IMG/VR virus record: IMGVR_UViG_3300046474_000274
Span: 36,425 to 100,424 of that record
DNA: 64,000 nucleotides
Direction: 5' to 3' (one strand)
Source of the DNA: a virus
Lineage: Duplodnaviria; Heunggongvirae; Uroviricota; Caudoviricetes
Shown here: positions 7,819 through 40,387 of the stretch, piece after piece
Position numbering within the stretch: the first letter of the stretch is position 1
How the letters are laid out: each line of letters starts with the position of its first letter
Notes under the pieces: generated by a model
The model's database searches: none
What the model saw: only the letters and a program-made list of their open reading frames with translations
What the model was told of the DNA's origin: nothing
Made by a program: the position numbers and the translations under genes

Positions 7819-8289
7819 ATGCCGAAGGCGCGCACCGCTCTGAACGATGAAGTCAAGAAGATCCTGGAAGAGGTCGGCAACGAGGTCGTGGCCGCGCTCA
7901 AGGGTGAATTCTACGAGGTAGACGGCACGCCGATGGCGACCGTGAAATACGACACCGGCGCTTTCAAGAAGAAGCCGCTGATGCCGACGTGGCTCTTCCA
8001 GATCGAATACGCCTATGTCGGCGCGATGGGCAAGATCCAGTTCGGCCTCTCGCCGGAGGACGCCCAGGAATACAAGTTCGTGGAGATGCATCCGAAGGAA
8101 ATGGACGATGCCTTCCCGCTCGTAGGCCCGGCCGTCGCCAAGCACTTCGGCATCGAGGGTGAGAACCTCAAGATCGTTCTCGACGCCGAGCTGACCAGGC
8201 GCCTCAACGTGAAAGCCGACGCCGCAGAAGTCGAGCGCAAGCAGACCGAGGCCGCGTTGGAGCAGAACGAGCTGTTCGGCGCGTTCTGA
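7819..8289 (+). CDS. hypothetical protein with C-terminal ...ELFGAF
   Basis: ORF track 7807..8289; second ATG chosen because GGAGTTGAGG precedes it; promoter cassette upstream. Confidence 0.6.
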   Translation: MPKARTALNDEVKKILEEVGNEVVAALKGEFYEVDGTPMATVKYDTGAFKKKPLMPTWLFQIEYAYVGAMGKIQFGLSPEDAQEYKFVEMHPKEMDDAFPLVGPAVAKHFGIEGENLKIVLDAELTRRLNVKADAAEVERKQTEAALEQNELFGAF

Positions 8290-8316
8290 TTAACCCCTAA
8301 AAATTTGGAGTATTTG

Positions 8317-8889
8317 ATGGGCAAGATCCTCATCGCTGGCCTTGACGGGTCTCTGCGCAATTTCGGTGTCGCGACCGCTTGGCTCGACCTCGACACCCTC
8401 GAATTGGAGATCAAGGCCCTTATCCTGGTCGAAACCGAGAAGTCGAAGGTCAAGAATATCCGCGCGTCGTCCGACAATCTGGCGCGCGCCATCGAACTGC
8501 GCAAGGGCGTCCACCAGGCGCTGAAGGGCGTGACCACGGTCTTCTACGAAGTGCCCTCGGGCGGTCAGGACTACAACGCAGTCCTCGGCTTCGGCATCGT
8601 CATCGGCACGTATGCAGGCATTCCGATCCCCGGCATCGAAGTCTCGCCGGCAGAGACGAAGCTCGGCGCCGTCGGCACCAAGACCGCCTCGAAGGACGAA
8701 ATGATCGAATGGGCGTTCGAGAAGTATCCGAAGGCTCCCTGGTTGCTCACCAAGCGGGGCGGTGTGATGGTCCCGGTGAAGAAGAACGAGCACCTGGCCG
8801 ATGCTGTGGCGATCATGGAAGCCGGCATCAAGACGCCGAGCTTTGAGCAGACGCTCGCCATCCTCCGTTCTATGCCGATGGCCGCATAA
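8317..8889 (+). CDS. RuvC-like Holliday junction resolvase
   Basis: ORF track 8305..8889, which begins at a TTG; ATG 8317 follows GGAG; ILIAGLDGSLRNFGVA and HLADAVAIMEAG match RuvC catalytic regions. Confidence 0.75.
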   Translation: MGKILIAGLDGSLRNFGVATAWLDLDTLELEIKALILVETEKSKVKNIRASSDNLARAIELRKGVHQALKGVTTVFYEVPSGGQDYNAVLGFGIVIGTYAGIPIPGIEVSPAETKLGAVGTKTASKDEMIEWAFEKYPKAPWLLTKRGGVMVPVKKNEHLADAVAIMEAGIKTPSFEQTLAILRSMPMAA

Positions 8890-8905
8890 ATTATTTGTCA
8901 AGTCT

Positions 8906-8926
8906 AGTAAGTAATTACTTACTTAA
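8906..8926 (+). promoter_or_regulatory. promoter palindrome copy (TAGTAAGTAATTACTTACTTA) before nrdB
   Basis: Family member. Confidence 0.55.
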
Positions 8927-8950
8927 CTATGATGCGAACCCATCCTCGTG

Positions 8951-9955
8951 ATGGGTTCAACCATTCCCGAACCGACGAGATTTCACATGCTTTTTGAACG
9001 CCAGGTCGAGCGCTTACCCGACCATTATCCTTGGGCTCAGGACTTCATCGAAGCCATGCAGGACGGTTTCTGGACGGCCAAGAAGTTCAGCTTCGACAGT
9101 GATGTCACCGATTACGAACTGCACCTCACCGACCAGGAGCGCGAAATCATCAAGCGCTGCCTCGCCGCGATCGCGCAGATCGAGGTCAAGGTGAAGGAAT
9201 ATTGGGCGCTGCTCGGCCGCAAGCTGCAGCATCCGTCGATCTCTGATCTCGGCATCGTCATGGCGAATATCGAGGTCATTCATAATAACGCCTACGAAAA
9301 GCTCCTCAAGAAGCTCGGCCTGATCAGCGTCTTCAAGGACAACATGCACGTTCCGGCCATTGCCGGCCGCGTCAGTTATCTGAACAAGCACACGGAGCTG
9401 GCCTTCAAGGGCGACGATCGCAAGCAGTTCATCTACTCGCTGATCCTCTTCACGCTGTTTGTGGAGAACGTCAGCCTCTTCAGCCAGTTCTACATCGTTC
9501 TGTGGTTCAACCGCTTTGAGAACCGCTTCAAGGACGCGGCCCAGCAGGTGAAATACACCCGCAATGAGGAGATGCTCCACGCCCAGGCCGGCATGAAGAT
9601 CATCAACACGCTGCGCCAGGAATATCCGGAGCTCTTCGACGCCGAGCTCGAGGCGAAGATCAAGGAAGAGTGCCAGGTCGCGCTCGACGCGGAATCCGCC
9701 CTGATTGACTGGATGCTCGGCGACTACGACCAGCCGAAGCTCAATGCGTCGATCCTTAAGACCTATGTCGCCCAGCGCCTGAACGAGTCCCTCACCGGCA
9801 TTGGCTACACGCCGATGTTCGAGGTCTCCGAGGCTGAGAAGGCCGAGACCTTCTGGATGACCGAAGGGCTGCTCGCGCCCGCCAAGGTCGATTTCTTCCA
9901 CTCCGAACCCACTGCCTACCAGCAGGCCGACCAGCCTGACGACGACAATTTCTAA
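8951..9955 (+). CDS. nrdB: ribonucleotide reductase small subunit (R2, ferritin-like)
   Basis: ORF track 8948..9955; ferritin-like EVIHNNAYEKLL and FTLFVENVSLFSQF; start ambiguous, ATG 8987 is the alternative. Confidence 0.75.
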   Translation: MGSTIPEPTRFHMLFERQVERLPDHYPWAQDFIEAMQDGFWTAKKFSFDSDVTDYELHLTDQEREIIKRCLAAIAQIEVKVKEYWALLGRKLQHPSISDLGIVMANIEVIHNNAYEKLLKKLGLISVFKDNMHVPAIAGRVSYLNKHTELAFKGDDRKQFIYSLILFTLFVENVSLFSQFYIVLWFNRFENRFKDAAQQVKYTRNEEMLHAQAGMKIINTLRQEYPELFDAELEAKIKEECQVALDAESALIDWMLGDYDQPKLNASILKTYVAQRLNESLTGIGYTPMFEVSEAEKAETFWMTEGLLAPAKVDFFHSEPTAYQQADQPDDDNF

Positions 9956-9972
9956 GCAAGAAGGAAACGTAA

Positions 9973-11655
9973 ATGCGCCCTGATTGGGAACACTTCAACG
10001 ACATTGCGTTGAAGACCCTCTCCCGCGGATATCTGCGGGAGGGCATCGCAAAGGAAGACCTCAAGGATGAGGCCATCAAGCGCGCCAACGCGCTTGTTGA
10101 TGCTGCCGAGAAGGAACTCGGCATGAAGTTGCCGATGGTCCGGTTCGGCATGAAGCGCGGCTGGGTATCGCCGGCCTCGCCGATCTGGTCGAACTTCGGC
10201 ACGGATCGCGGTCTGCCGATCTCCTGCAACGGCTCGTTCATGGCCGACGACATGGACTCCATCCTGTTCAAGAACGCCGAGATCGGCGCGATGACGAAGG
10301 AAGGCGCCGGCACCTCGCTCTACATGGGCGCGCTGCGTCCGTTCGGCTCGCCGATCGCGGGCGGTGGAACGTCGGAAGGTCCGGTTCACTTCGCTCGTCT
10401 CCCGCAGGAGCAGGTCCAGGTGATTTCGCAGTCGAATGTCCGGCGCGGCAACTGCGCGGTCTATCTCGACATCGAGCACCAGGACATCGATCGCTGGATG
10501 CAGATGCGTTCGACGACCGAAGGCGTGCATCACCCGATCCAGCATCTGTCGTTCGGCGTCGTCATTGGCGATGACTGGATGAATGAAATGCTGGCCGAGG
10601 GCAAGGGCGGCCCGAAGCGCAAGCTGATGGCGAAGATCCGCAACAAGCGGCGCGAGACTGGCTTCCCCTACATCGTGTTCCGCGACAATGCGAACAACGC
10701 CCGGCCGGAGATCCTGAAGCGGCTTGGTCTGCTGATCTACGCCTCGAACCTCTGCACCGAGATCATGCTGCCGTCCAGCCCGGATGAAAGCTTCGTCTGC
10801 GATCTGTCGTCAGTCAACGTCCTCTATTACGACGAATGGAAGGGCACCGACTTCGTTCGGGAAATGATCTATTTCCTCGACGCGGTCATGTCCGAATACA
10901 TTCGCAAGACCAAGGGCAAGCGGCTCATGGCCGATGCGCGGCGCTTTGCCGTGCGTTGGCGCGCTCTCGGCCTCGGAACGCTCGGCTGGCACTCCTACCT
11001 GCAGTCGCGTGAGATCCCGATCGAGACGCAGGAAGCCCGCGACCTCAACATCGAGATCCACAAGTATCTCCATGACGAGTCCCACGCCGCGTCCCGCTGG
11101 ATGGCAGTGCAGTATGGCGAGCCTGAAGGTCTGAAGGGCACCGGCTACCGGAACCTGACCGTCAACGCGATCGCGCCGACCACTTCGTCCTCGATCATCT
11201 GCGGCCAGGTCTCGCAGTCCATCGAGCCCTGGGAAGCCGTCGTCTTCGAGAACGACAATGCCAAGGGCGTGTTCACGAACTACAATCCGCAGTTCGTCGC
11301 ACTCCTCGATCGCCTCGGCATGAACCGCACCGATGTCTGGGAGTCCATCCTGGGAGCAGGCGGCCGCGTCGAGCATCTGGACTTCCTGACCAGGCGCCAG
11401 AAGGACACCTACAAGCCGTGGGTCGACATCGACCAGATGGAGCTCGTGCGTCAGAACAACGACCGCACGCCGTTCATCGACCAGGGCATCTCCTTCAACG
11501 TCCAGCTTCCGCCCGAAGCAACCATGAAGGACGACATCGACATCATCGTGGCTCTGTGGAAGGGCGGCTCCAAGTCCGCCTACTACCGCAAGGGTCTGAA
11601 CAAGGCACAGGAGCTGGCCCGTGCCAACGCTTCGTGCGTAGCGTGCGAGGCATAA
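9973..11655 (+). CDS. nrdA: ribonucleotide reductase large subunit (class I-like)
   Basis: ORF track; catalytic SNLCTEI; C-terminal CVAC pair; AAGGAAA RBS. Confidence 0.8.
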   Translation: MRPDWEHFNDIALKTLSRGYLREGIAKEDLKDEAIKRANALVDAAEKELGMKLPMVRFGMKRGWVSPASPIWSNFGTDRGLPISCNGSFMADDMDSILFKNAEIGAMTKEGAGTSLYMGALRPFGSPIAGGGTSEGPVHFARLPQEQVQVISQSNVRRGNCAVYLDIEHQDIDRWMQMRSTTEGVHHPIQHLSFGVVIGDDWMNEMLAEGKGGPKRKLMAKIRNKRRETGFPYIVFRDNANNARPEILKRLGLLIYASNLCTEIMLPSSPDESFVCDLSSVNVLYYDEWKGTDFVREMIYFLDAVMSEYIRKTKGKRLMADARRFAVRWRALGLGTLGWHSYLQSREIPIETQEARDLNIEIHKYLHDESHAASRWMAVQYGEPEGLKGTGYRNLTVNAIAPTTSSSIICGQVSQSIEPWEAVVFENDNAKGVFTNYNPQFVALLDRLGMNRTDVWESILGAGGRVEHLDFLTRRQKDTYKPWVDIDQMELVRQNNDRTPFIDQGISFNVQLPPEATMKDDIDIIVALWKGGSKSAYYRKGLNKAQELARANASCVACEA

Positions 11656-11657
11656 AA

Positions 11658-11876
11658 ATGGGCTATCACATCATGACCAAGCCGGGCTGCAACTATTGCA
11701 CCCGCGCCAAGGCTCTCCTGAAGGGTCAGAATATCTCCTACACGATCCAGGATCACGACACCGAGGAGAAGATCCAGCGGTTCAAGGACGCTGGCTACAA
11801 GTCCTTCCCGATGATCTTCCACGATGGGGTGCTGGTCGGAGGGTATGACGCCCTCGTTGACTACCTGGAATACTAA
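11658..11876 (+). CDS. nrdH: glutaredoxin-like protein (NrdH-like redoxin)
   Basis: In frame with ORF 11418..11876; IMTKPGCNYC thioredoxin-fold motif; lies after nrdA. Confidence 0.75.
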   Translation: MGYHIMTKPGCNYCTRAKALLKGQNISYTIQDHDTEEKIQRFKDAGYKSFPMIFHDGVLVGGYDALVDYLEY

Positions 11877-11908
11877 AAAGTGGCGCTTCGGCGCCACTCT
11901 CTTTTTGT
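11876..11908 (+). terminator. rho-independent terminator after nrdH (GTGGCGC-TTCG-GCGCCAC then TCTCTTTTTGT)
   Basis: GC hairpin plus T-run. Confidence 0.8.
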
Positions 11909-11925
11909 GCGATCCCGTGACGAGC

Positions 11926-11962
11926 GCGCTATAAGTTAAGTAAGCACTTACTTTAAATAGGA
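11926..11962 (+). promoter_or_regulatory. promoter cassette copy (GCGCTATAAGTTAAGTAAGCACTTACTTT) before thyX
   Basis: Family member. Confidence 0.65.
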
Positions 11963-11968
11963 GAATTC

Positions 11969-12997
11969 ATGTCAGGTAAGGAACGCATGTTCGCCAAGAT
12001 CGTCTTGGCGTCGAAGGCAGCGAGCTCTACCGCTCTGCCGCTGATCACGATGCACCTGCATTATCCGGATATCATTCACGGCGAGGTGATGACGCATCGG
12101 GTGTTCTCACGCAACGCTCGCTCCATGCGCGCCGTCCCGGTCGCAACGATGGTCAAGGAAGTGCGCGAGGATCCTTTCGTGCCTTGGCATTGGGGCAAGA
12201 ACCAGAAGGGGATGCAGGCGTCGGAAGAATGCAACGAGCTGGTTAAGATCGGTTCCTATTGGGAAGGCGGCCCGCATAATGATCGCGAGGTCGATATCCT
12301 GAAGACCCGCGAAGAGGCATGGCGCCTCGCTGCGAATTCGGCAGCGGATTTCGCCGAGAACTACGCCCACGCCGGCTACCACAAGCAGATCGCCAACCGT
12401 ATCATCGCGCCCTACACCTGGAAGCACACGCTGATCACTTCGACCTCGTGGGCGAACTTCCTGCACCTGCGCGACCATGGAGATGCCGAGCCGCACTTCC
12501 ACGACCTGGCCGCTCTCGTTCGCGAAGCTCTCCAGGGCGCGAGGCCCGCCATCCTTCACCCCGGCGAATGGCACCTGCCCTACGTCGATCTCGGCGAATA
12601 TCACTCGATCCTGATGCGCCACGCCGGCCAGGACCGCGCGGTGGCTCTGTCGATTGCGCAGAAGCTCTCCGTCGCCCGCAGCGCCCGCATCTCCTACGCG
12701 CCGTTTGATGGTGATCCGTCGATTGAGCGTGAGCTGGAGCGCTACGACCTGCTCGTCGGCTCCTCGCCTCTCCACGCCTCGCCCACCGAACACCAGGCCA
12801 CGCCTGACACGCAGTCCACCTACCGTCGCCAGGTCAAGACCTTCGAGTCATCGATGAGTCGCGACCATGACCTCTGGAAGGCGGTCAGCGAAGGCAACGA
12901 CTGGAACAACCCGCATCTCGCCGGCAACCTCGGTCCCGGCTGGATCCAGTATCGCAAGACCCTCCTCAACGAATACATCAAGGATATCGCAGCATGA
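11969..12997 (+). CDS. thyX: FAD-dependent thymidylate synthase ThyX
   Basis: ORF track; ThyX motif HRVFSRNARSMRA (RHRxxxxxxxS); promoter cassette and AGGAGAA RBS. Confidence 0.85.
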   Translation: MSGKERMFAKIVLASKAASSTALPLITMHLHYPDIIHGEVMTHRVFSRNARSMRAVPVATMVKEVREDPFVPWHWGKNQKGMQASEECNELVKIGSYWEGGPHNDREVDILKTREEAWRLAANSAADFAENYAHAGYHKQIANRIIAPYTWKHTLITSTSWANFLHLRDHGDAEPHFHDLAALVREALQGARPAILHPGEWHLPYVDLGEYHSILMRHAGQDRAVALSIAQKLSVARSARISYAPFDGDPSIERELERYDLLVGSSPLHASPTEHQATPDTQSTYRRQVKTFESSMSRDHDLWKAVSEGNDWNNPHLAGNLGPGWIQYRKTLLNEYIKDIAA

Positions 12998-13251
12998 AGA
13001 AGCTGACCATGATCGCGGCGCTGGCCGCAACTACCCTGCTCGCTGGCTGCGGTGTCAATCCTGACTCCGCAAAGCGCTCGCTCGAGGCGCAGGGCATCAC
13101 CCAGGTCCAGATCGGCGGATACCCGTTCTGGGGCTGCTCGAAGGGCGATAACTTCGCATCGAAGTTCACCGGCATCGGCGCCAATGGAAAGCCGGTCTCC
13201 GGCGTCCTGTGCAGCGGGTTCCTGAAGGGCATCACGGTTCGCTATGACTAG
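12994..13251 (+). CDS. small lipoprotein (signal peptide plus lipobox LLAGC)
   Basis: ORF track; MKKLTMIAALAATTLLAGCG; ATGA overlap with thyX. Confidence 0.65.
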   Translation: MKKLTMIAALAATTLLAGCGVNPDSAKRSLEAQGITQVQIGGYPFWGCSKGDNFASKFTGIGANGKPVSGVLCSGFLKGITVRYD

Positions 13252-13435
13252 CATGACCATGAGTTTCGACGTGGAAGAGCGCCGGAACGGCTGGCTCTAT
13301 CGTTTCCCTTCGGGCGACGAGAAGGCCCTCTGGTTCGGCCCCTTTCAGACGCGCGCAGCGGCAGAGGAAGCCGCGATCAAGGCGTGTGAAAAGCATTTGG
13401 CGCAGTCCGTCATGGAAGCGCTTGGTTTAAAGTAA
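13244..13435 (+). CDS. hypothetical protein
   Basis: ORF track 13244..13435. Confidence 0.45.
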   Translation: MTSMTMSFDVEERRNGWLYRFPSGDEKALWFGPFQTRAAAEEAAIKACEKHLAQSVMEALGLK

Positions 13436-13441
13436 GGAGAA

Positions 13442-13918
13442 ATGAAAATGGGTGCATCCTTTAACGAAGCACAGCAGCTCCGCGTGAAGCTGCTCAACGA
13501 CGGCGCAAAGGTTCCGGAATACGGATCCGAGGAGGCAGCCGGCGCGGACCTGTTCGCGAACTTTGTCGGCCTGACCTCGCAGGATACGGTTCTGACCGTC
13601 CTTCCGGGGCAGCGCGTCCTGATTCCGACGGGTATCGCGGTGGAAATGAATCCCGGCACCTATGCCGAAGTCGCACCGCGTTCCGGCCTCGCCTTTAAGC
13701 AGGGCGTTGCGGTCCTGGGCGGTATCATCGACAGCGATTATCGCGGCGACATTGGCGTGATCCTGCTCAATACCTCGGAGAAGTCCGTTGAGCTGAAGCA
13801 CGGCGACCGGATCGCCCAGCTCATCATCAAGCCGTATGTTCGCGGCGTGTTCTCCGTCGCCGAGTCCCTCGACGAAACGAACCGCGGCGAAGGCGGCTTC
13901 GGCTCGACGGGCAAGTAA
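13442..13918 (+). CDS. dut: dUTPase
   Basis: ORF track; motifs AGADL, PRSGL, GIIDSDYRGD and GDRIAQL; AAGGAGAA RBS. Confidence 0.85.
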   Translation: MKMGASFNEAQQLRVKLLNDGAKVPEYGSEEAAGADLFANFVGLTSQDTVLTVLPGQRVLIPTGIAVEMNPGTYAEVAPRSGLAFKQGVAVLGGIIDSDYRGDIGVILLNTSEKSVELKHGDRIAQLIIKPYVRGVFSVAESLDETNRGEGGFGSTGK

Positions 13919-13919
13919 T

Positions 13920-14618: not shown

Positions 14619-14633
14619 ACAAGAGAGACGACG

Positions 14634-16132: not shown

Positions 16133-18526
16133 ATGCAGGTTTCATCGATCGCAGAACTGGACACACACGCCGTCATCGGTGGTGGAAAAGCCGAAGCTTT
16201 CGGCATGTCAGAGTCCGCAGAATTCTTCACCGTGCTTTCAGACACGCTCTATCGCGACAAGATCCGCGCGGTCGCCCGCGAAGTGATCTGCAACGCCTGG
16301 GACGCGCATATCATGGTCGGCGCAACCGACCGCCCGATCGAGATCACGCTGACTGACCAGGAGCTTATCATCCGCGACCACGGTCCCGGTATTGCGCCCG
16401 AGCGCATGCGTCCGATCTACTGCATCTACGGCGCCTCGACCAAGGTCAAGGACGAGAACCAGACGGGCGGCTTCGGTCTCGGCTCGAAGGCACCTTTCGC
16501 CTATTCCGACCACTTCTCGGTCGTCTCGGCTCATGAAGGTCTGCGCACCGTCTACGCTGTCTCGCGCGGTGGTGCAGAGACTGACGGCAAGCCCGACATG
16601 CGCGCCATGGTCCAGACGCCGACCAAGAATTCCGGCATCACCGTCTCGATCCCGATCCGCTCGCGTGATGACCGGCTCAGGTTCGAAAGCCACATCACGG
16701 CAGTCGTCAAGCAGGGCGGCATCAAGGCGCTGCTGAACGAGCAGGAGATGTTCACCTTCGATTACACCGAAGCTCGCAAGCGCGGCTATGCCCTGTGCGG
16801 CCAGAGCGCCGATTTGCGCGAGTCCCAGGTATACGTTCTCTACGGCACCGTGCTCTATCCGGTCTCCGGCACGAACTCCGACCTGGCGCACGCCGTCAAC
16901 TCGATCTCGAACTACAAGGATCACGGCGACAAGTTCATCCTGATCGCCAAGCCCAACACCGTCGGCGTGACGCCCTCCCGCGAGTCCCTCTCCTATTCTG
17001 ATCGCACTGTCGCGACGATCCTGGGGCTGATCACCAACATCAAGAAGTCGGTCGAAGGCCACGGCCGCAAGGCTGTGAAGGAGATCATCAAGGGTCGCCT
17101 GAAGGAAGCCAAGCGCTACGAAATCCGCAGCGATATCATCAACAGCGGCAGTCGGATCTCGACCCGTGGCGAAGTCGTCACCGATGCCAAGGCGCTCGCC
17201 AAGATCGCAGCGTCCGGAAACATGGACGCATTCACGACGGCGCTGCAGCGCCACAAGATCGTCATGGACGAGATGGCGAAGAAGTATCGCGACGATCGCC
17301 GCTTCTTCCGTCGCAACCGGCACACCATGTTCCGCAACCGCAGCTACTACGGTCAATACGCCGTCTCCAGCGAGCGCGACCAGTTCCTGAACGAGTCCCG
17401 GCTTGTCCGGCGCCTGATCGCCAAGTTCGATCTTTTCGGCAGCGCGTTCGTCAGCCATTGGGACGAAATCCAGGGTCGCAAGCTGATCCCGCTCGAAGAG
17501 TTCAACCACTTCGGCGCCGTCAACCAGCGCCTTATCTTCGCACCGACGCAGCGTGACGGCTTCAAGGCAGCCCGTGAATACCACGCGCTGGCGAAGGACG
17601 AGCCTGGCTACGAGCGCAAGCTGACCCTCGTCATCATCAATCGGCGCCTGTCGCCTGAAACGCTCGACAAGATCCGCGATGCTGCAAAGCACTGGAAGAT
17701 CGACATCGAGACCACGAACTTCGCCAAGCCCATCCGTCGCAAGCGGGCTGATATCGGCATCTACTACTCGCTGCGCGATGTGAAGGAAAACAAGGACGGC
17801 TACGTCCACAAGATCGATGAGATCAAGACCCTCTTAAAGGCTAACTACTACATGCCGATGCGCGGCGGGCTCGATCGCCTGGAGATGGACAAGTCTCTCT
17901 TCCAGGTGCGTGACAAGATTCTCGAACGCTATGGCGATGTTGCCTTGGCGATGTCGAGCAAGACCGAGGCGAAGCTCAAGGCTGCCGGCGCGAAGAACAT
18001 CTACGACGCACTGTTCGCCGACCTGCAGAAGGCCAACAACAGCCGCGAGGCGCAGATCGCCTCGATGATGCAGCATGACGGGTTCATCCAGAATCCGCAT
18101 TGGCACTCGCCTGGTCGCCTGATCAACGAGCTGTGCCACAAGGACATGAAGTTCGTGACCTTCTTCTTCGGCGTCAAGCCGTCGAAGGGCACGGCACTCG
18201 AAGACGCCAAGTTTCTGATGAGCGCTCTTGGCGGCAACCGCAATAGCGGTCGCGTCAGCCGTCACAATAACTCCGTCTCGCAGGAGATGGACCGGACCTA
18301 CGCTGAGGCCAAGAAGACCTTTGCGCACCTCATCCTTGACCGTGATCAGTCGGAGAAGGTCTTCGCCTGGCTCAAGCCCCTCACCGGCATGGGCGTCTCT
18401 CAGCGTGGCGACACGTCGAAGGACGATCTCATGACCATCCTGAAGTTCCTGAAGCGGACCTTCAGCGTCAAGTCTACCCCGAACAACGACAACGCAACGC
18501 TCGAAGAAGCCAAGGAGGCAGCATGA
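16133..18526 (+). CDS. Hsp90/GHKL (Bergerat-fold) ATPase family protein, 797 aa
   Basis: ORF track; N-box AREVICNAWDA (compare Hsp90 RELISNASDA); G1 IRDHGPGI; G2 TGGFGLGSKAPF; AGAGGCAGC RBS. Confidence 0.8.
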   Translation: MQVSSIAELDTHAVIGGGKAEAFGMSESAEFFTVLSDTLYRDKIRAVAREVICNAWDAHIMVGATDRPIEITLTDQELIIRDHGPGIAPERMRPIYCIYGASTKVKDENQTGGFGLGSKAPFAYSDHFSVVSAHEGLRTVYAVSRGGAETDGKPDMRAMVQTPTKNSGITVSIPIRSRDDRLRFESHITAVVKQGGIKALLNEQEMFTFDYTEARKRGYALCGQSADLRESQVYVLYGTVLYPVSGTNSDLAHAVNSISNYKDHGDKFILIAKPNTVGVTPSRESLSYSDRTVATILGLITNIKKSVEGHGRKAVKEIIKGRLKEAKRYEIRSDIINSGSRISTRGEVVTDAKALAKIAASGNMDAFTTALQRHKIVMDEMAKKYRDDRRFFRRNRHTMFRNRSYYGQYAVSSERDQFLNESRLVRRLIAKFDLFGSAFVSHWDEIQGRKLIPLEEFNHFGAVNQRLIFAPTQRDGFKAAREYHALAKDEPGYERKLTLVIINRRLSPETLDKIRDAAKHWKIDIETTNFAKPIRRKRADIGIYYSLRDVKENKDGYVHKIDEIKTLLKANYYMPMRGGLDRLEMDKSLFQVRDKILERYGDVALAMSSKTEAKLKAAGAKNIYDALFADLQKANNSREAQIASMMQHDGFIQNPHWHSPGRLINELCHKDMKFVTFFFGVKPSKGTALEDAKFLMSALGGNRNSGRVSRHNNSVSQEMDRTYAEAKKTFAHLILDRDQSEKVFAWLKPLTGMGVSQRGDTSKDDLMTILKFLKRTFSVKSTPNNDNATLEEAKEAA

Positions 18527-33929: not shown

Positions 33930-34244
33930 TGGTTCCTGTTACGTTCTATAGGAGTAAATTCCTATATGCTAGCCGATCATGTCAACCGGATTCTTTGCCG
34001 CGATGTCGTGATTGGTAAAAATTGCCTGCCGCAAGCCAAGCAGCGCTGAGATATATATAGACTTGTCATAAATCAAGAGATTTGCATGTAGCTAGCTAGC
34101 TATATAGCCATTGACTTGAGGTATAAATCAACTTTGAGTAAATATGCGCGGACCGACGGAATCATAAGAAAGTCAGACAGTTGGGCGCACATCCCGGTCA
34201 CCCATGCATACAATGCAGTCATTCTACTAGAAAGGGAAACATCA

Positions 34245-34649
34245 ATGAAGATCAATGACTTCACCCGTTCCGAACATCGTCGTCTTTCTGCCGCGATCGA
34301 GACTGCCCTGAAAAAGATCGGGGAAGATTTTGGGGTTGACTTGACGGCCGCAGGTGGCGTCTACGGGCAGACCAACCCGCACGTCAAGATCGCTGTCACG
34401 ATTCGGGACACCGGCGCCGGCGTCTCGGGTGCCAAGGCTAATTGGGATCGCTATGCGAAGCCCTACGGCATGGAGCCGGAGTGGTTCGGCCAGGCCATCA
34501 TCATCCAGAATACCGCCTACGAGATCTGCGGTTTCCTGCCGAACAAGCCGAAGTATGCGGTGCAGATCAAGCGCTGCCATGACGGAAAGATCTTCGGCAC
34601 GACCGTCTTGGCAGCGCAGCAGCAGTTGCGTATGAAGGCCGCGGCCTAA
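34245..34649 (+). CDS. hypothetical protein (low-GC island)
   Basis: In frame with ORF 34116..34649; AGGGAAA RBS. Confidence 0.5.
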   Translation: MKINDFTRSEHRRLSAAIETALKKIGEDFGVDLTAAGGVYGQTNPHVKIAVTIRDTGAGVSGAKANWDRYAKPYGMEPEWFGQAIIIQNTAYEICGFLPNKPKYAVQIKRCHDGKIFGTTVLAAQQQLRMKAAA

Positions 34650-34669
34650 CATCGCAGCAGGGGTAATTA

Positions 34670-34915
34670 ATGCAGATCGCCTATCTCGCCGTCACGCTCG
34701 CCATTCTCGGAGGTGGCAAGGTGCCCGAGCCCCAGGTCATCCCGCAGGGCTATTACGACAAGGCGGGCTGCGACGAGTGGAAGTCCAACATGGACAAGCA
34801 GGTAAAGACCACGGTCGACCCTGGCACGGGCCGGCCGCTCATCTCGCAGCAGTTCCTTTGCCAGGTGGTCGACCTTGATGACATGCAGCGGATGATCACC
34901 TCGTTCAAGCAATAG
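34670..34915 (+). CDS. small secreted/lipoprotein-like protein
   Basis: ORF track; N-terminal hydrophobic LAVTLAILGGG. Confidence 0.45.
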   Translation: MQIAYLAVTLAILGGGKVPEPQVIPQGYYDKAGCDEWKSNMDKQVKTTVDPGTGRPLISQQFLCQVVDLDDMQRMITSFKQ

Positions 34916-34946
34916 CAAAACGGCCCGTTTGGCGGGCCGTTGGCTC

Positions 34947-35153
34947 TTACTGATCTGTATCCACGGGGAATATTTCCGCTCCGTGGAAGTAGGCTTCACG
35001 AAGGAACTGACCTAAGTCAACCTCGGATTCTGCCAAGAAGCGCCCGATATTAAAGGCAATTTCCCGTTGTCTAAAATGCTCCTCGACGGCACAAATAACA
35101 GTCGCCTGAAGCTCCGATATTTGCCCTTCGAAATAGCCGCGCGTCATTGTTTT
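34947..35153 (-). CDS. small hypothetical protein, paralogue B (68 aa from the internal ATG; ORF extends to 35213)
   Basis: ORF track 34947..35213; GGGGGAGG RBS before the internal ATG; C-terminal ...VDLGQFLREAYFHGAEIFPV parallels paralogue A. Confidence 0.5.
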   Translation of the reverse strand, partial: KTMTRGYFEGQISELQATVICAVEEHFRQREIAFNIGRFLAESEVDLGQFLREAYFHGAEIFPVDTDQ

Positions 35154-35380
35154 TGTTCTCCATTTTCCCAGCACCTCCCCCTCGTTCGTCGGTGATTGAT
35201 GAGGAGATCCCAAGCGGCCTAATGATCCGATCCTTAACGCTTTGGCAACTGTTATATTCAGAAATTCTACCCAGGGTTAACGCGGATTCTACGCGCTGCC
35301 GTCGCTCTTTCGCTATAAGTGATTTCGTAACGAAACGCGCTATATGCGCGACTGCTGACACATAATTTAAGGAAATCTTC

Positions 35381-35698
35381 ATGACCGACCAGAACAACAT
35401 TTTCACGTCGTCCGAACCGGTCACGTCTAAGCTTATCGAGCCTGGTGATGTTGCCCTGCTCATCAAGAAGGACGGCACCGTCCAGCCGCTGACGTTCGGC
35501 TACGACTGCAGCAGGCTCACGCAGCCGGACGCGGCTCTCACCGACGAGGACAAGAAGATGCTCGAGCAGGGTCAGAAGCTGTTCGCCCTCGCCTTTGCGG
35601 CCGGTCATCCCAAGCTGATGCAGACGCTGATCGATATCGCCTCTGATCCCGAGGTTGTCGATCTTCAGACGCTCCGCGCCGCGACGACCCGGCACTAA
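35381..35698 (+). CDS. hypothetical protein
   Basis: ORF track; AAGGAAA RBS; variant promoter cassette with a TTTCGTAACGAAA palindrome. Confidence 0.55.
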   Translation: MTDQNNIFTSSEPVTSKLIEPGDVALLIKKDGTVQPLTFGYDCSRLTQPDAALTDEDKKMLEQGQKLFALAFAAGHPKLMQTLIDIASDPEVVDLQTLRAATTRH

Positions 35699-35704
35699 TC
35701 CGTG

Positions 35705-35962
35705 ATGGCAATGAACGTGACCAATCGACAGCGGCTGGAATTTGCAGCCGCTGGGTTCCTCGCCGAGATGCGCAAGCAATGGGCCAAGCTCCACCCCGAG
35801 GATCCCTGCCCCATTAAGAACCTCGCCGACTATCCCGAGAAGGAGCGGTCGGCGCTGATGGCTGGTGTCCAGAAGGCCGTGCAATACGCCGGCCCCGACA
35901 CCGACAACGCCTTCGCGGCCTGGATCGCGAAGCGGGAAGAAGTCAGTCCGCACACGACCTGA
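35705..35962 (+). CDS. hypothetical protein
   Basis: ORF track 35702..35962. Confidence 0.5.
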   Translation: MAMNVTNRQRLEFAAAGFLAEMRKQWAKLHPEDPCPIKNLADYPEKERSALMAGVQKAVQYAGPDTDNAFAAWIAKREEVSPHTT

Positions 35963-35980
35963 TGCGCTCCCAATGTCGTT

Positions 35981-36011
35981 TGCGCTATAAAGTAAGTAAG
36001 CAATTACTTAG
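35981..36011 (+). promoter_or_regulatory. promoter cassette copy (GCGCTATAAAGTAAGTAAGCAATTACTTAG)
   Basis: Family member. Confidence 0.65.
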
Positions 36012-36024
36012 GAAGGAACGCGAC

Positions 36025-36351
36025 ATGCTTCTGCCCATGCTCATGAACATCGCTCTCGGATCTGGAAAGCTCCAGGTCGACGAGGACGGGAAGAACTACC
36101 GGCTGGTCACCAAGAACCTCGGCGTCGTCGAGGTGCTGGCGAAGATCGACAAGGAAGCGATCTATCAGATGGCCCGGACGCCCGAGATGCCTGCCACGCG
36201 CGAGGAAGCCGTGCAGCAGGCGGCAGCGAAATTCGAGGCCGACGTTAGCGATGAGTCCAAGGTTCTCGCTGGCGAGCCTGTGCCGCTCCCTGTGCGGCGT
36301 CCTGCTCGCCAGAAGCCGCAGCTCGCCCTCATTCAGGGCGGTGCAGCATGA
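36025..36351 (+). CDS. hypothetical protein
   Basis: In frame with ORF 35962..36351; ATG after the promoter cassette and GGAAGGAA. Confidence 0.5.
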   Translation: MLLPMLMNIALGSGKLQVDEDGKNYRLVTKNLGVVEVLAKIDKEAIYQMARTPEMPATREEAVQQAAAKFEADVSDESKVLAGEPVPLPVRRPARQKPQLALIQGGAA

Positions 36352-36578
36352 GCGCCCGCCTGCTTGCCGAGGTCCAGCGCCGGCACAAGGCTGAGAACGA
36401 GAGGACGCCAACCCGCAACATGTTTGTAAAGCTCCACGTTGGCCAGGAGATCTTCAAGGGCTGGATCACCAAGATCGATCCGGCAGGCGGATATGTCGAG
36501 CTATCCCGCGACCGTAACGACGGCGGGTTGATCCTCATCGAAATGGATCGCATCGTCGCGGTCATGCCGAATTGGTGA
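36348..36578 (+). CDS. hypothetical protein
   Basis: ORF track. Confidence 0.5.
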   Translation: MSARLLAEVQRRHKAENERTPTRNMFVKLHVGQEIFKGWITKIDPAGGYVELSRDRNDGGLILIEMDRIVAVMPNW

Positions 36579-36581
36579 CCC

Positions 36582-37244
36582 ATGGTCAATATGAGCGAGT
36601 GGCTCCTCGACACCGAAGGTTGGTCAAAGGAGTTGTTGAGCGGGATCATTGCGCTGCCAAGTCGCGGCGCCGGTAAGAGCGTCTTCCAGCAGCTCTATAT
36701 GCAGCGGCCGCGTATCGATAAAGGCATCCGCGGCGCTACGGTCAACACCATCGTTGTCGACGAAGCCGCATCTGCCTTTACCGTCGATATTCTCCGCAAT
36801 GCGATTGAACACATCGAGCTCCGGCGTGACCGCCTCTCGTGGGAAGACTTCCCCAAGTTTGGTCCAATCCCGACCGCGAAGGTGGACGGTAAATGGCTCT
36901 CCCGCGATGACGTGAAGGCGACCTTTAAGGATGAGAAGCATCCCAGCGCCGACACCTACCTGGTGCTGGAAAAGCTCGACAGGAAGGATCCTCGCCATCC
37001 TAACCCGGCAGCCGGCACCCAGAGGCTTTGGTATGTCCTGCAGGGTCAGAAGCGCGTCCAGGTCAAGAACCTGTCCCAGGGCCAGGGGCGCGCCCGTGCG
37101 ATGCATCTGGCCGAGATCAAGCGGATCGAGGATGCGAAGGCTGCGGCCGAGCGCGAGCGTCTGATCGCTGCAACCGAAGCCTACGAGAAGGCACAGCGCG
37201 AACATGAACACCTAACCAACCTGCCGGCATTTGGAGGCTTCTGA
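36582..37244 (+). CDS. hypothetical protein with C-terminal ...LPAFGGF
   Basis: ORF track. Confidence 0.55.
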   Translation: MVNMSEWLLDTEGWSKELLSGIIALPSRGAGKSVFQQLYMQRPRIDKGIRGATVNTIVVDEAASAFTVDILRNAIEHIELRRDRLSWEDFPKFGPIPTAKVDGKWLSRDDVKATFKDEKHPSADTYLVLEKLDRKDPRHPNPAAGTQRLWYVLQGQKRVQVKNLSQGQGRARAMHLAEIKRIEDAKAAAERERLIAATEAYEKAQREHEHLTNLPAFGGF

Positions 37245-37591
37245 TGACCGAAGACGAGAAGAAGACCCGCATCCGCGAGCTTAACGACGAACTGCGCGCC
37301 AAGCGCCTTGTGCGCAACGGCAAGATCATCATCACCGGCGATCTGACCAACGAGGTCGACGACCGTGGGAAGATCATGGCGATCCTCGACGCCATCCGGG
37401 ACTTCAACGACTTTCCGAAGGGCAATGATCCCTATCTCGAGCACGACTTCGGCAGGTTCGCCGTCGGCGATGACACGTTCATCTTCAAGATCGACTACTA
37501 CGCCCTGGACGAGGCGACCCTTTCCCCTCACCCCGAGGATCCCGCGACCACGATCAGGGTTATGTCGGTCTTCTACGCCCACGACTATTGA
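37244..37591 (+). CDS. hypothetical protein
   Basis: ORF track. Confidence 0.55.
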   Translation: MTEDEKKTRIRELNDELRAKRLVRNGKIIITGDLTNEVDDRGKIMAILDAIRDFNDFPKGNDPYLEHDFGRFAVGDDTFIFKIDYYALDEATLSPHPEDPATTIRVMSVFYAHDY

Positions 37592-37599
37592 CTGCCATG

Positions 37600-37668
37600 T
37601 GAGCTGCGCTCGTTACCGAGCGCACTCCTACACGTTTTGCGCTATAAGCTAAGTAAGAGCTTACTTAT
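37600..37668 (+). promoter_or_regulatory. hairpin TGCGCTCG..CGAGCGCA followed by GCGCTATAAGCTAAGTAAGAGCTTACTTAT
   Basis: Family member. Confidence 0.65.
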
Positions 37669-37683
37669 AACACGGAGAAGACA

Positions 37684-37902
37684 ATGCCAGATGCCAACGT
37701 TCTCGACGCCCTGTTTGAGGCGGCGCTCGAACATGAGTTCTTCCCAAAAGGCACGATCATCAAGCGTCGTTTCGAAGGCGCTCATGGCCCTGGGTCCACT
37801 CACGACATCCTCTTTGAGGATCAGAGGACCGGCAAGACCTATCGGATCACGGCCGAGCTGCAGCCGACGCCTGTCGATTACGGCCGCTCCGTAGGCGCCT
37901 GA
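37684..37902 (+). CDS. hypothetical protein
   Basis: ORF track; promoter cassette upstream. Confidence 0.5.
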   Translation: MPDANVLDALFEAALEHEFFPKGTIIKRRFEGAHGPGSTHDILFEDQRTGKTYRITAELQPTPVDYGRSVGA

Positions 37903-37906
37903 GACG

Positions 37907-38194
37907 ATGAGCAAGCGGGTCAAGGTCGGCGATATCGAGGTCGGGGTGATGAGGAATCCTCTTCCCGAGAAAACCAATTGGATCGTCTACCGCTACCGGC
38001 CCCGGACCAACGAATACCTATCGAAGCAGGATGCCTACACCGACGTTCAGGCGGAAAACCTATTCACGCTGGTCATCGGACAGGAAGAACTTCGGCAGAA
38101 GCGGGCGGCGTTAGCGGCGTCTGCAGTGATGAGTGAGCCGGACCTGGCGGAAGTGGCTCACTACCAGACACATCCTTTCTTTGCGAGGTTCTGA
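37907..38194 (+). CDS. hypothetical protein with C-terminal ...HPFFARF
   Basis: ORF track. Confidence 0.5.
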   Translation: MSKRVKVGDIEVGVMRNPLPEKTNWIVYRYRPRTNEYLSKQDAYTDVQAENLFTLVIGQEELRQKRAALAASAVMSEPDLAEVAHYQTHPFFARF

Positions 38195-38195
38195 A

Positions 38196-38444
38196 ATGAG
38201 TGTGCAGAAGCGCAAGCGCGACCTGTTGAAGATGGCGCAGTCGATCTGCCCGAAGGCCAAAATAGAGCATTCGGGCCATCACCTAGCCATCACAATCTTC
38301 GGTCCGGAAGGATCTCGGAAGGTGTTCTGCGCATCGACCGCGTCCGACCATCGCGATGCCAAGAATATCAAGCGCGATCTCCTGGGCGCGGCGCGCGCCG
38401 TTGGTCTCGTTGCTAACCGCAATGAGCCTCCCGCATCCCAATAA
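38196..38444 (+). CDS. hypothetical protein
   Basis: In frame with ORF 38133..38444. Confidence 0.5.
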   Translation: MSVQKRKRDLLKMAQSICPKAKIEHSGHHLAITIFGPEGSRKVFCASTASDHRDAKNIKRDLLGAARAVGLVANRNEPPASQ

Positions 38445-38495
38445 TCAGCGCATTAGAATGCGAATATAAGCAACGTCTACACGAGGAAAGCTCCG

Positions 38496-39050
38496 ATGAA
38501 CCGTTATTCCGTGCATGGCGAGAACATGATCGCCAAGGCCGACCTGTTCGCCTTCGCCGCGCATACCGCGATCGGCCAGGTCCGCAAATACACTAACGAG
38601 CCCTATATTGATCATCCGCGCGCAGTCGCCGATATGGTGAGGGCTCTGCCGGATCACACCTGGCAGCAGGTCGTCCTGGCGCTGATCCACGACACGGTCG
38701 AGGATACGAAGATCGAGATGAGCCACGTCCGGGCGGTATTCGGCGAGGAGATCGCCGACGGGCTCTATTATCTGACCAATGTCGAACCCAGCGCCGGCAA
38801 TCGTGCGCGCCGGCATTACCTCAACTGCGAGCGGCTGCGGAACTCGCCCGCCCGTGTGGCGACGGTCAAGTGCCTCGACATCTTCCACAACACCGCGCGG
38901 ATCGCCGAGCTCGATCCGACTTTCGCGCCACAGTATCTGCGTGAGAAGGCCGAGGCGCTGGAGTCGCTGCGTCACGCCGACAATATCGTCTGGCGCATGA
39001 CCTGGGAGCAGATTGCCAACGCCGCACTTGCCGTAGGGGCCGCCTCATGA
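38496..39050 (+). CDS. SpoT/RelA-type HD-domain hydrolase (small alarmone hydrolase-like)
   Basis: ORF track; EPYIDHPRAVA...LIHDTVEDT aligns with the SpoT HD region EPYITHPVAVA...LLHDVIEDT. Confidence 0.75.
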   Translation: MNRYSVHGENMIAKADLFAFAAHTAIGQVRKYTNEPYIDHPRAVADMVRALPDHTWQQVVLALIHDTVEDTKIEMSHVRAVFGEEIADGLYYLTNVEPSAGNRARRHYLNCERLRNSPARVATVKCLDIFHNTARIAELDPTFAPQYLREKAEALESLRHADNIVWRMTWEQIANAALAVGAAS

Positions 39051-39586
39051 CCGACACCATCGCCGTTCACCATATCGAAGAGGTGCCGGGCGGTGCCTCC
39101 CTTCAGGTCATTTCGATCGAGGACAAGCTCGAGGGCGACAGGTTCTTCGTGCGCCTGGCCGAAGGCATGGAGTTCGAGGACACGCCCTTCGAGGACTATC
39201 CGCAAGCCTACGCGCATTGGCGCAACGTGTTGCGGACCCTCGGCATCACGGTCGCTTATGTGGCGCCAGTGGTCGAGTTCATCGACATGTCAGCGCCGGC
39301 TGACGTTCGCGGCGCCGTGGAGATCTATTTCGAGTTCCACAGCCATCTCAATCGACTTCGCGCCGGCACGGATGAGGCGACGGCGATCAGGGACAAGTAT
39401 CTGACCGACCCGGAGTTCATCGACAACGTCGCCGAGATCCTCGAGCTCGCCGGCTCCAACGGTTCCGATTGGGTCGCCGCGACCATCCGCACTGCCTGCC
39501 GGCGGGTGATGGCCCGTGAGCAGATGGCCCATAAGAAGTCCGTCGAGGAGCACCTGGGCGGCCTGTCGACCTTCGGCGCATTCTAG
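39047..39586 (+). CDS. hypothetical protein with C-terminal ...LSTFGAF
   Basis: ORF track. Confidence 0.55.
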   Translation: MTDTIAVHHIEEVPGGASLQVISIEDKLEGDRFFVRLAEGMEFEDTPFEDYPQAYAHWRNVLRTLGITVAYVAPVVEFIDMSAPADVRGAVEIYFEFHSHLNRLRAGTDEATAIRDKYLTDPEFIDNVAEILELAGSNGSDWVAATIRTACRRVMAREQMAHKKSVEEHLGGLSTFGAF

Positions 39587-39616
39587 TGGGAAGTGCTGCT
39601 CAGCAGCAGCCCCCTT

Positions 39617-39658
39617 GTCATCACCTACCGCGTTCCAACGCTGTTTTCGCTACAAATG
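39617..39658 (+). promoter_or_regulatory. GTCATCACCTACCGCGTTCCAACGC...GCTACAAATG element upstream of the gene at 39697
   Basis: Second motif family. Confidence 0.5.
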
Positions 39659-39696
39659 AATTGCAAGCGATGCAAATAGCAGAGGAGTGAGCGCTG

Positions 39697-40113
39697 ATGG
39701 TGAACGTGCCGAATGCCAAGCGCGTCATCGCGTCAATTAGAGGGCTTTTGCCCGAGACGCAGAACCTGGGCTTCAACATGGGCGGCTATGTCTACCCGAC
39801 GAGCGAAGCCCTGCCTGATCATAGCGGTCACAATCTCGAATGGGTCGCATGCGTCTGCGGCCACGCCTACATCCTCGAGACCGGGTGTTCCTTCCAGCAG
39901 GCTAAGGACGAGGAACCCGATGAGATCGAGGAAATCGCCCAGCTCTATCTGGGGCTAAGCCATGAGCAGGCAAATGCCCTGTTTTTCGATCTGCCCGATC
40001 ACCTGACGCTCGCCTGGATCCCGCTCGACCATGTGGTCGCAGTGCTGGAACGGCTGATCGCGACTGGCGAGGTCAACTGGATCCTGGAGGAAGCCCATGC
40101 CGAAGCTGCATGA
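39697..40113 (+). CDS. hypothetical protein
   Basis: ORF track; GGAGTGAG RBS. Confidence 0.55.
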   Translation: MVNVPNAKRVIASIRGLLPETQNLGFNMGGYVYPTSEALPDHSGHNLEWVACVCGHAYILETGCSFQQAKDEEPDEIEEIAQLYLGLSHEQANALFFDLPDHLTLAWIPLDHVVAVLERLIATGEVNWILEEAHAEAA

Positions 40114-40387
40114 CGGCTGGACGCAGCTCCAAGGCGTCTCCGGTGCCGGCTGGGATATCTGGGCAGGCACCAGTCCTTACATGCCGGAGGGCTCGCGCTT
40201 TGCGATGTTCCGGCGCCGCATCGCCGAGGAGGAGACCTACACCAGAGGGCTCATCTACCCGACGCTGACGCAGGTGCAGGCCGCGATCTATCAGATCCGG
40301 CTTCAATTCGAGCGCGGCAAATACCAATTCGAAGACCTCTTTCCCAATGAGGTCATCATCGATCATCCCAATTTCGGAGCATTCTGA
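40097..40387 (+). CDS. hypothetical protein with C-terminal ...HPNFGAF
   Basis: ORF track. Confidence 0.5.
   Translation: MPKLHDGWTQLQGVSGAGWDIWAGTSPYMPEGSRFAMFRRRIAEEETYTRGLIYPTLTQVQAAIYQIRLQFERGKYQFEDLFPNEVIIDHPNFGAF

Follow-up and report, generated by a model that had tools for sequence, protein, structure and literature searches.

A conserved C-terminal G-x-F tail on unrelated small proteins of Rhizobium phages and on a family of chromosomal serine recombinases

Why should several unrelated small proteins of one phage end in nearly the same few residues? The question is raised by a 64,000-nucleotide stretch of IMG/VR virus record IMGVR_UViG_3300046474_000274 (positions 36,425 to 100,424), referred to here in its whole length as the window, in which an initial annotation had picked out four small products ending in F-G-[AG]-F and a fifth with a related end. 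All five open reading frames (ORFs) are present on the plus strand with the C-termini reported for them. Counting the last residue as position 0, the 156-residue product of 7819..8289 ends in NELFGAF (8266..8286), the 220-residue product of 36582..37244 in LPAFGGF (37221..37241), the 179-residue product of 39047..39586 in LSTFGAF (39563..39583) and the 96-residue product of 40097..40387 in HPNFGAF (40364..40384). The fifth, a 95-residue product of 37907..38194, has the divergent tail HPFFARF (38171..38191), with Ala replacing the usual Gly at -2. Longer examples of the tail peptide are EEYAAHPNFGRF and VIIDHPNFGAF. The start of the first gene was placed at 7819, and not at 7807 as in the ORF listing, in line with its homologues, which begin MPKAK.

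The window is part of the genome, about 120 kb long and 60% G+C, of a siphophage of Rhizobium. Its close relatives are the Rhizobium phages V1VFA-S, B1VFA and RHph_X66, with RHph_N1_10, RHph_Y2_11 and RHEph10 more distant, and R. phaseoli phages are found both in the clade of the window and in that of N1_10 and RHEph10. These phages encode DnaE, a DnaB-like helicase, a primase, a gp32-like single-stranded DNA-binding protein (SSB), RecA, SbcCD, ribonucleotide reductase (RNR), a sigma factor and an HslV-family peptidase, together with numerous small ORF products that have no assigned function.

That the shared terminus is no accident can be seen from simple counts. Gene prediction based on G+C content at third codon positions (GC3) gave the window 92 genes and a proteome of 18,942 residues, and the six-frame set comprises 571 ORFs of at least 35 residues, among which termini of the form F-x-x-F occur on exactly these five. 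The string FG[AGT]F appears four times in the predicted proteome, each time at a C-terminus, and five times in that of V1VFA-S, again always at the C-terminus. The frequency check on terminal tetrapeptides that the initial annotation had proposed gave a result far above chance, four termini of the form [FY]G[AGTR]F being observed among the 92 genes against 0.005 expected (Poisson P = 2.6e-11). As a look-elsewhere control, residues were shuffled within each protein, and any C-terminal x-y-*-z pattern common to at least four proteins arose in 1 of 5000 shuffles. Descent from one ancestral gene was ruled out by all-against-all BLAST, which bore out the description of the five proteins as unrelated in sequence: their similarity is limited to the last ~28 residues of two of them (best E = 0.05). 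Since the enrichment goes beyond chance and the five proteins are not paralogues, the shared terminus is real. The relatives carry it too: V1VFA-S has eight tail proteins, and RHph_N1_10 has eight of its own, which end in [HN]-P-N-[FY]-G-R-F and include the orthologue of the 7819..8289 product and a protein with a WGR domain.

Loss of the FGAF terminus among orthologues had been named at the outset as the finding that would speak against a functional tag, and the tail was kept in every orthologue examined. Those of V1VFA-S and B1VFA end in HPEFGGF/HPAFGGF, HPFFARF, LSTFGAF/LSNFGAF, NELFGAF and RHPNYGTF. The family of 7819..8289 retains the tail in 17 of 17 homologues and in the N1_10 orthologue, down to 34% identity, in versions that include NELFGAF, SLPTFGAF, NPSYGMF, NPLFGRF and NPNFGRF, with Gly(-2) and Phe(0) invariant. 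The orthologues of 36582..37244 end in HPEFGGF in V1VFA-S and HPAFGGF in B1VFA, and a clade-B relative (L016) has NPNFGRF. HPFFARF at the end of 37907..38194 is identical in V1VFA-S and B1VFA, the residues upstream being different. FGAF is invariant in 12 homologues of 39047..39586 (51-67% identity), in which positions -4 to -8 are 25-67% conserved, and the clade-B homologue (L021) ends in LPNFGRF. The gene at 40097..40387 is absent from V1VFA-S, and its B1VFA orthologue, B1VFA_040, ends in RHPNYGTF. Identity within families is 88-100% over the last four residues and 25-82% at the flanking positions.

The conserved end is longer than the four residues first noticed. Over 40 non-redundant tails taken from the window, V1VFA-S, N1_10 and IMG/VR contigs, the consensus spans about ten residues and reads Y(-9)-x-x-[H/N](-6)-P(-5)-N(-4)-[F/Y](-3)-G(-2)-x(-1)-F(0)-COOH. 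Phe(0) and an aromatic residue, Phe or Tyr, at -3 are found in all 40; Gly(-2) is found in 38, Pro(-5) in 33, His or Asn(-6) in 31, Asn(-4) in 27 and Tyr(-9) in 18, and position -1 is taken by Arg, Ala, Gly or Thr. At the level of DNA, the same 40 tails draw on each of the four codons for Gly and for Pro, on Arg codons of both the CGN and the AGR family, and on every one of the three stops. Because the codons vary and the amino acids are fixed, purifying selection has acted on the peptide and not on the DNA. Position -1 differs between the clades, being strictly Arg in the N1_10/RHEph10 clade and Ala, Gly, Thr or Arg in the clade of the window, with at least four protein families shifting together.

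The proteins that carry the tail are all small (54-250 residues), and the tail usually follows either a long charged helix (as in …AERERLIAATEAYEKAQREHEHL-TNLPAFGGF) or a Pro-rich linker (as in …PPVPEVPVVPVDPYAS-HPNYGRF). An AlphaFold2 model of the 7819..8289 product, with a mean predicted local distance difference test (pLDDT) score of 84.7, has a beta-rich domain at residues 10-110, a helix at 117-154 and a tail in which the score falls to 54; a fold comparison with this model gave no informative match. For the 39047..39586 product (pLDDT 77.9), two domains, a helix at 142-171 and a disordered tail at 172-179, with pLDDT below 50, were predicted. Pfam and PHROG searches of the tail proteins, that of 36582..37244 included, returned no family except WGR (V1VFAS_096) and Resolvase (the recombinase of L035, described below), so the tail-bearing domain types include WGR-domain and resolvase proteins. 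The footprint of about ten residues, the exposed or disordered segment in which it lies and its presence on non-homologous carriers, each with a conserved tail in its orthologues, are the features of a short linear motif (SLiM).

One homologue of the 7819..8289 product (P0009, encoded at 8226..8720 of L162, IMGVR_UViG_3300048850_000049) has two tails in tandem and ends in …ANPIFGAF-LIPNFGAF-COOH.

The genes that encode these proteins keep particular company. The first tail gene, 7819..8289, lies between an SbcC-like gene (5557..7590) and a RuvC-like gene (8305..8889), and the SbcC-RuvC interval holds one to three tail genes in these phages, with three in succession in L157 (8121..9621). The stop codon of DnaE is overlapped by a tail gene in three lineages, namely V1VFA-S (V1VFAS_112, IPNFGAF), L022 (1056..1277) and L171 (3149..3481). 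A tail gene follows that of RNR in V1VFA-S (V1VFAS_135, APNFGTF) and in L157 (12698..13072), and the gene for the WGR-domain protein (V1VFAS_096, NELYGRF) comes after the primase gene; for V1VFAS_112, V1VFAS_135 and V1VFAS_096, the window either does not reach the locus or lacks a counterpart. Other tail genes are grouped among small ORFs, as at 36.5-40.4 kb of the window. The description of the proteins as early is thus not established: 7819..8289 sits in a recombination and nucleotide-metabolism module, a sigma-70 consensus scan of the window from 32 to 42 kb revealed no promoter excess, and tails end small proteins beside DnaE, primase, SbcCD/RuvC and RNR, not early ones alone.

Within the window cluster, several tail genes are joined directly to their neighbours. 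The stop of 36582..37244 overlaps the start of a DUF3768 gene (37244..37591, E = 2.9e-23), and the start of 39047..39586 overlaps the stop of an HD-domain gene (38496..39050) annotated in relatives as a (p)ppGpp synthetase/hydrolase, the overlapping codons coupling the translation of the genes in each pair. The stop of 40097..40387 likewise overlaps the next start, in the sequence TGATG. L157 (IMGVR_UViG_3300024987_000008, 36 kb, 64% G+C) represents a further lineage, in which the three consecutive products between SbcC and RuvC end in …NPIFGMF, …QPSFGAF and …APNFGAF; a fourth tail gene (…NPNFGAF) follows the gene of a 777-residue protein, and many products of the same locus end in Ala-Ala.

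How far the tail extends beyond these phages was approached with exact scans for the tail followed by a stop codon. Three scans of IMG/VR (PNFGRF, PNFGAF and PNYGRF) gave genuine ORF-terminal matches in high-GC contigs only, which are syntenic with the Rhizobium phages or of Rhizobiales type; the low-GC matches were not ORF-terminal. One tail protein found on L055 had no tblastn match in isolated phages. The scan of GTDB, for PNFGRF, returned at least 120 matches, and among the matches listed most were chance occurrences in open frames of 6-40 codons. The genuine cases among the matches listed come from Sinorhizobium, Mesorhizobium, Phyllobacterium (a 118-kb phage contig) and an alphaproteobacterial metagenome-assembled genome, all belonging to Rhizobiales or other alphaproteobacteria. 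The gammaproteobacterial cases in GTDB (Stenotrophomonas, L074, and Halothiobacillaceae, L063) look spurious or isolated and were set aside. A 39-codon ORF ending in …KKPPNFGRF, identical in four IMG/VR contigs of 52-56% G+C (L010, 4873..4992; L011; L031; L033), is a candidate gene.

The Sinorhizobium match led outside the phages altogether, to a small serine recombinase that combines a Resolvase domain with a helix-turn-helix and has the terminus …EDYQHHPNFGRF. Tailed serine recombinases are encoded at 4897..5646 of L035 (minus strand) and at 10001..10750 of both L178 and L180, and a homology search found the family (about 249 residues; proteins P0030-P0097) in Rhizobium, Sinorhizobium, Neorhizobium, Mesorhizobium, Pleomorphomonas and Ancylobacter. 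Among the best 120 cluster representatives, 61 end in [FYW]-G-x-F, one in …YARF and five carry an extra residue after the Phe (…GRFG/S); homologues of about 223 residues lack the tail extension. The recombinase tails take the form …D-Y-Q-x-[HN]-P-N-[FY]-G-x-F, and over 62 of them Tyr(-9) is present in 54, Asn or His(-6) in 49, Pro(-5) in 56, Phe or Tyr(-3) in 62, Gly(-2) in 61 and Phe(0) in 62. Position -1 is free (Arg, Ala, Leu, Gln, Ile, Met, Val and Tyr are all found), and the rest of the profile matches that of the phage tails.

The chromosomal recombinase genes border defence loci: BREX (L180/L181), GmrSD with an SNF2 helicase and a methyltransferase (L178) and a RecQ-like helicase (L035). 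Their remaining neighbours vary from island to island, no common candidate receptor gene adjoins them, and the islands contain no further tail-bearing gene. The L035 recombinase had no tblastn match in isolated phages or plasmids. A recent paper presents small serine recombinases as defence-island markers but is silent on the tail (PMC13552941).

These findings are accommodated by a reading to which we give about even odds, that is, a probability near 0.5, in which the tail is a portable C-terminal SLiM that docks its carriers to one putative receptor, the outcome being tethering or recruitment at a hub of DNA transactions. The charged helical or Pro-rich spacer would display the tail at the end of otherwise unrelated small proteins; the exposed tail would then serve as an address tag, its terminal Phe, Gly(-2) and aromatic residue at -3 docking into the one common putative receptor, and the different N-terminal domains would in this way be brought to the same place. 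Two facts favour tethering at sites of DNA transactions, the position of tail genes next to those of DnaE, primase, SbcCD/RuvC and RNR and the direct fusion of one tail to a recombinase, and we rate tethering above destruction of the tagged proteins. We infer further that the putative receptor is most likely a protein of the Rhizobiales host, since chromosomal recombinases of six genera carry the tail without phage context or a shared neighbour gene. As to the manner of docking, the recombinases with an extra residue after the Phe and the one phage protein with tandem tails fit binding in a groove better than strict recognition of the terminal carboxylate.

Several points weigh against the docking interpretation. 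A degron predicts the same exposure, terminal position and conservation, and Ala-Ala ends on about one-fifth of the phage proteins suggest that C-terminal proteolytic signals may be a theme of the genome. The clade-wide differences at -1 could point to a co-evolving partner encoded by the phage and not by the host. A profile of 22 tails had zero matches among PDB chain sequences at E values up to 10, a full-text literature search with the tail motif strings returned only TDP-43 amyloid segments and unrelated epitopes, and the tail fits none of the known hub-binding motifs with which it was compared. Even so, that it is a shared functional tag and not a coincidence, as the initial annotation proposed, is strongly supported by its conservation in orthologues, by selection at the protein level and by its recurrence on unrelated proteins. 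The label of early proteins is not established and virion targeting is unlikely; of the possibilities that the proposal offered, a ligand for a common binding pocket comes closest to what the evidence favours.

By sequence comparison, the tail is a new terminal peptide outside every family tested, although its general type, a shared terminal docking or degron peptide, is known; a literature search found nothing on C-terminal motifs common to early proteins of phages. The nearest parallels are with hub-binding peptides. Peptides that bind the sliding clamp plug into one hub, and their typical carriers are polymerase-associated proteins and the recombinases and transposases of mobile elements. 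The likeness to the clamp tails of T4 and RB69 (gp43, gp33 and gp55) and to bacterial clamp motifs lies in a terminal hydrophobic peptide shared by unrelated phage proteins. The tail N-[FY]-G-[R/A/G…]-F is nevertheless distinct from the beta-clamp motif (QL[SD]LF or QLxLxL, defined by Gln at position 1 and hydrophobic residues at 2, 4 and 5 or 6), as it contains no Gln, its aromatic residues are spaced i, i+3, it is never internal, and at -1, where the clamp motif needs a hydrophobic residue, it has Arg, Ala or Gly (the position-4 equivalent may be Arg, Ala, Gly, Thr, Gln or others). The phage DnaE has, instead of the tail, a canonical-looking clamp motif of its own, QIELL or QLELL, within KDQIELLPGL or KDQLELLPGL at residues ~915-933 (V1VFA-S, L004 31075..34443; N1_10, L007 17641..21048; both outside the window), a position that we take to match roughly the site of the clamp motif in E. 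coli DnaE. No clamp gene of phage origin was seen, so the clamp used by the phage polymerase is probably that of the host. A phage-encoded sliding clamp was considered as the receptor and rejected, since the candidate, V1VFAS_115, is the gp32-like SSB, the tail does not suit clamp motifs and DnaE has its own QxELL.

The second parallel is the C-terminal tip of SSB (D-D-D-I-P-F-COOH), a disordered linker whose terminal Phe side chain and carboxylate are read by the pockets of partner proteins and which organises an interactome of DNA metabolism. A spacer ending in a terminal Phe is common to both, but the Phe alone is shared: the tail has Arg or Ala in place of Pro at -1, Pro at -5, Gly at -2 and no run of Asp, and the polarity is reversed, with many tail carriers and presumably one receptor. 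The T4 clamp tails and the SSB interactome are the analogies on which the proposed recruitment is modelled. Eukaryotic Ku-binding motifs and PIP-boxes, by which many repair, replication and recombination factors dock through a terminal SLiM on one DNA-bound ring, offer an analogy in concept only and have no sequence relationship to the tail.

The alternative that survives best, though we think it doubtful, is that the tail is a degron or protease-docking signal, with the aromatic C-terminus read by a host AAA+ protease or adaptor (the Lon N-domain, ClpXP/ClpAP, FtsH or HslUV). The tagged proteins would then either be short-lived or, in the manner of SspB, dock on the protease and serve as its adaptors or activators. 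An exposed C-terminal tail that is transferable between unrelated proteins is what such a signal would require, and proteases count recombinases and small phage regulators among their classical substrates. The layout of domain, linker and conserved transferable terminal peptide is also that of the adaptor SspB, in which a substrate-binding domain is followed by a long linker and a C-terminal ClpX-docking peptide, XB. The sequences, in contrast, have nothing in common, XB ending in …LRVVK and the ssrA tag in …LAA; the tails end in G-x-F and do not show the …[LV]-A-A-COOH of ssrA-like ClpX degrons.

Ala-Ala ends are themselves a second conserved C-terminal signal in this genome, and their abundance counts in favour of a degron. 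They are found on 20 of the 92 window proteins (~22%) against 1.05 expected, and among genes whose products have at least 80 residues the ratio is 20/73, compared with 6/142 in unrelated high-GC bacterial loci (Fisher P = 2e-6). Examples are the products of 5557..7590 (…EMAA), 8305..8889 (…PMAA), 11969..12997 (…DIAA), 16133..18526 (…KEAA), 41774..43876 (…PIAA) and, on the minus strand, 61571..63145 (…KAAA). The relatives have 24/157 (V1VFA-S) and 19/158 (N1_10), and the end is kept in 15 of 17 V1VFA-S and 8 of 11 N1_10 orthologues, with the residues before it varying; ATGA start-stop overlaps account for some cases only. AA-COOH is the end of the ssrA tag, recognised by ClpXP, and of alphaproteobacterial ClpXP substrates. 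A literature search on conserved Ala-Ala ends found no paper. The proteins concerned form a separate and much larger set than those with G-x-F tails, and the two termini may belong to the same story.

Lon provides the closest precedent for a degron of this type. Five-residue C-terminal Lon degrons (LarA, …VxVH) are transferable, and in an alphaproteobacterium the pocket of the Lon N-domain reads a terminal aromatic or hydrophobic residue together with the carboxylate (PMC11882793, PMC10665427). The short transferable C-terminal tag is common to both, but the sul20/H-degron class recognised by Lon, x-[LI]-[LIV]-H, has a strong preference for a terminal His, large terminal residues weakening recognition (PMC11986505), and Phe is terminal in 40/40 phage and 62/62 recombinase tails. 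In the LarA complex the terminal residue is the only one bound specifically (PMC11882793), and ten conserved positions far exceed what the Lon pocket reads. A degron is also at odds with the recombinase subfamily that keeps an extra residue after the Phe and with the setting of the tail genes, which are translationally coupled to DnaE and belong to operons for replication and recombination, in which a short-lived product would have no obvious use.

A tail with no dedicated receptor at all, acting as a weak sticker in self-association, in a condensate or replication factory, or through direct contact with nucleic acid, is unlikely. In its favour, NFGAF, as found in the tail at 40364..40384, is a kinked amyloid-like segment (LARKS, for low-complexity amyloid-like reversed kinked segment) of the TDP-43 low-complexity domain, the gp32-like SSB of the phage has a long Ala/Pro-rich low-complexity linker, and aromatic residues stand alongside Arg or His in the tail. 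The position-specific constraints, eight of them within ten residues and invariant Gly and Pro included, nevertheless point to a defined interface more than to generic stickiness, there is one copy of the tail per protein, and Arg at -1 is dispensable.

Quite improbable, too, is a receptor encoded by the phage, whether a replisome protein (the gp32-like SSB or the DnaB-like helicase) or the HslV-like peptidase of 58521..59033, which would be docked in the manner of HslU. The assignment of the latter to the HslV family was borne out (PHROG 1040, E = 5e-31), the gene is present along with the tails in both the window and N1_10 (EVB77_017), self-compartmentalised peptidases are docked and activated by the C-terminal tails of their partners, and at least four families change together at position -1 from one clade to the other, as co-evolution would have it. 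Position -1 is free in the recombinases as well, however, and so may be unconstrained, and the tail is carried by chromosomal recombinases of six genera that have no shared candidate receptor gene adjoining. Nor does the tail resemble the C-terminus of HslU (…[DE]-L-S-[RK]-F-I-L) or the hydrophobic-Tyr-X (HbYX) pattern, as its positions -1 and -2 are x and Gly. The HslV-like protein is highly divergent, with no match among PDB sequences, and its start, MSVV…, may make Ser, and not Thr, the N-terminal nucleophile. The suggestion that this peptidase times the proteolysis of early proteins meets two further obstacles, in that recombinase tails occur in genomes with no implied phage HslV and tails are not confined to early proteins; the hosts of the tailed recombinases probably encode HslUV themselves.

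Virion targeting, or a secretion signal, is very improbable: comparable C-terminal signals are known elsewhere, but in V1VFA-S and N1_10 the structural modules contain no tail gene, the tail is carried by chromosomal recombinases next to defence islands, and the carriers include a DNA-binding WGR-domain protein and a resolvase. Chance, or the by-product of a nucleotide signal in which the Shine-Dalgarno sequence of the next gene falls within GGAG-containing Gly codons, can practically be dismissed, for although three of the five window stops overlap or abut the next start and the Gly-x codons contain GGAG or GAGG, the other two tails have no downstream gene nearby and use GGC, Pro, Asn, His and Tyr as far as ten residues upstream are under the constraint too, and an origin in Shine-Dalgarno or start-stop overlap is effectively refuted by the codon diversity over 40 tails and the P of 2.6e-11.

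The docking interpretation, if correct, would be of broader interest. To our knowledge, few short linear motifs of bacteria and phages have been described beyond the clamp, SSB, FtsZ and ssrA peptides, motifs of this kind being central in eukaryotic and viral networks; the tail is a high-information motif of about ten residues gained convergently by at least 12 unrelated families, made up of phage proteins and one family of defence-island recombinases. Discovery of the receptor would expose, in Rhizobiales, a hitherto unrecognised hub or a host machine that has been hijacked; it would also open a way into the functions of many hypothetical phage proteins together and provide a transferable tag with which to recruit or destabilise rhizobial proteins. 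The recombinases beside BREX, GmrSD and other defence loci also raise a testable link between phage infection and the dynamics of defence islands. An extension of the idea, speculative and in our judgement a long shot, is an address code common to the Rhizobiales mobilome, in which phage proteins and defence-island recombinases compete for one putative host receptor that infection titrates. Five to eight tail-bearing phage proteins flooding the cell would then alter the stability or activity of the recombinase, the titration could be an infection sensor that drives inversion, excision or spread of the island, and the tail and the Ala-Ala ends would form a two-letter C-terminal code in the phage proteome.

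A last observation concerns the neighbour of the HslV-like gene. The gene directly upstream, at 57892..58524 on the plus strand, overlaps the start of the peptidase gene, to which it is translationally coupled. Its product has a hairpin domain of the Acb2/Tad1 type (PF24729, E = 1.3e-9), a fold known from the sponges with which phages bind the signalling nucleotides of CBASS and Thoeris.

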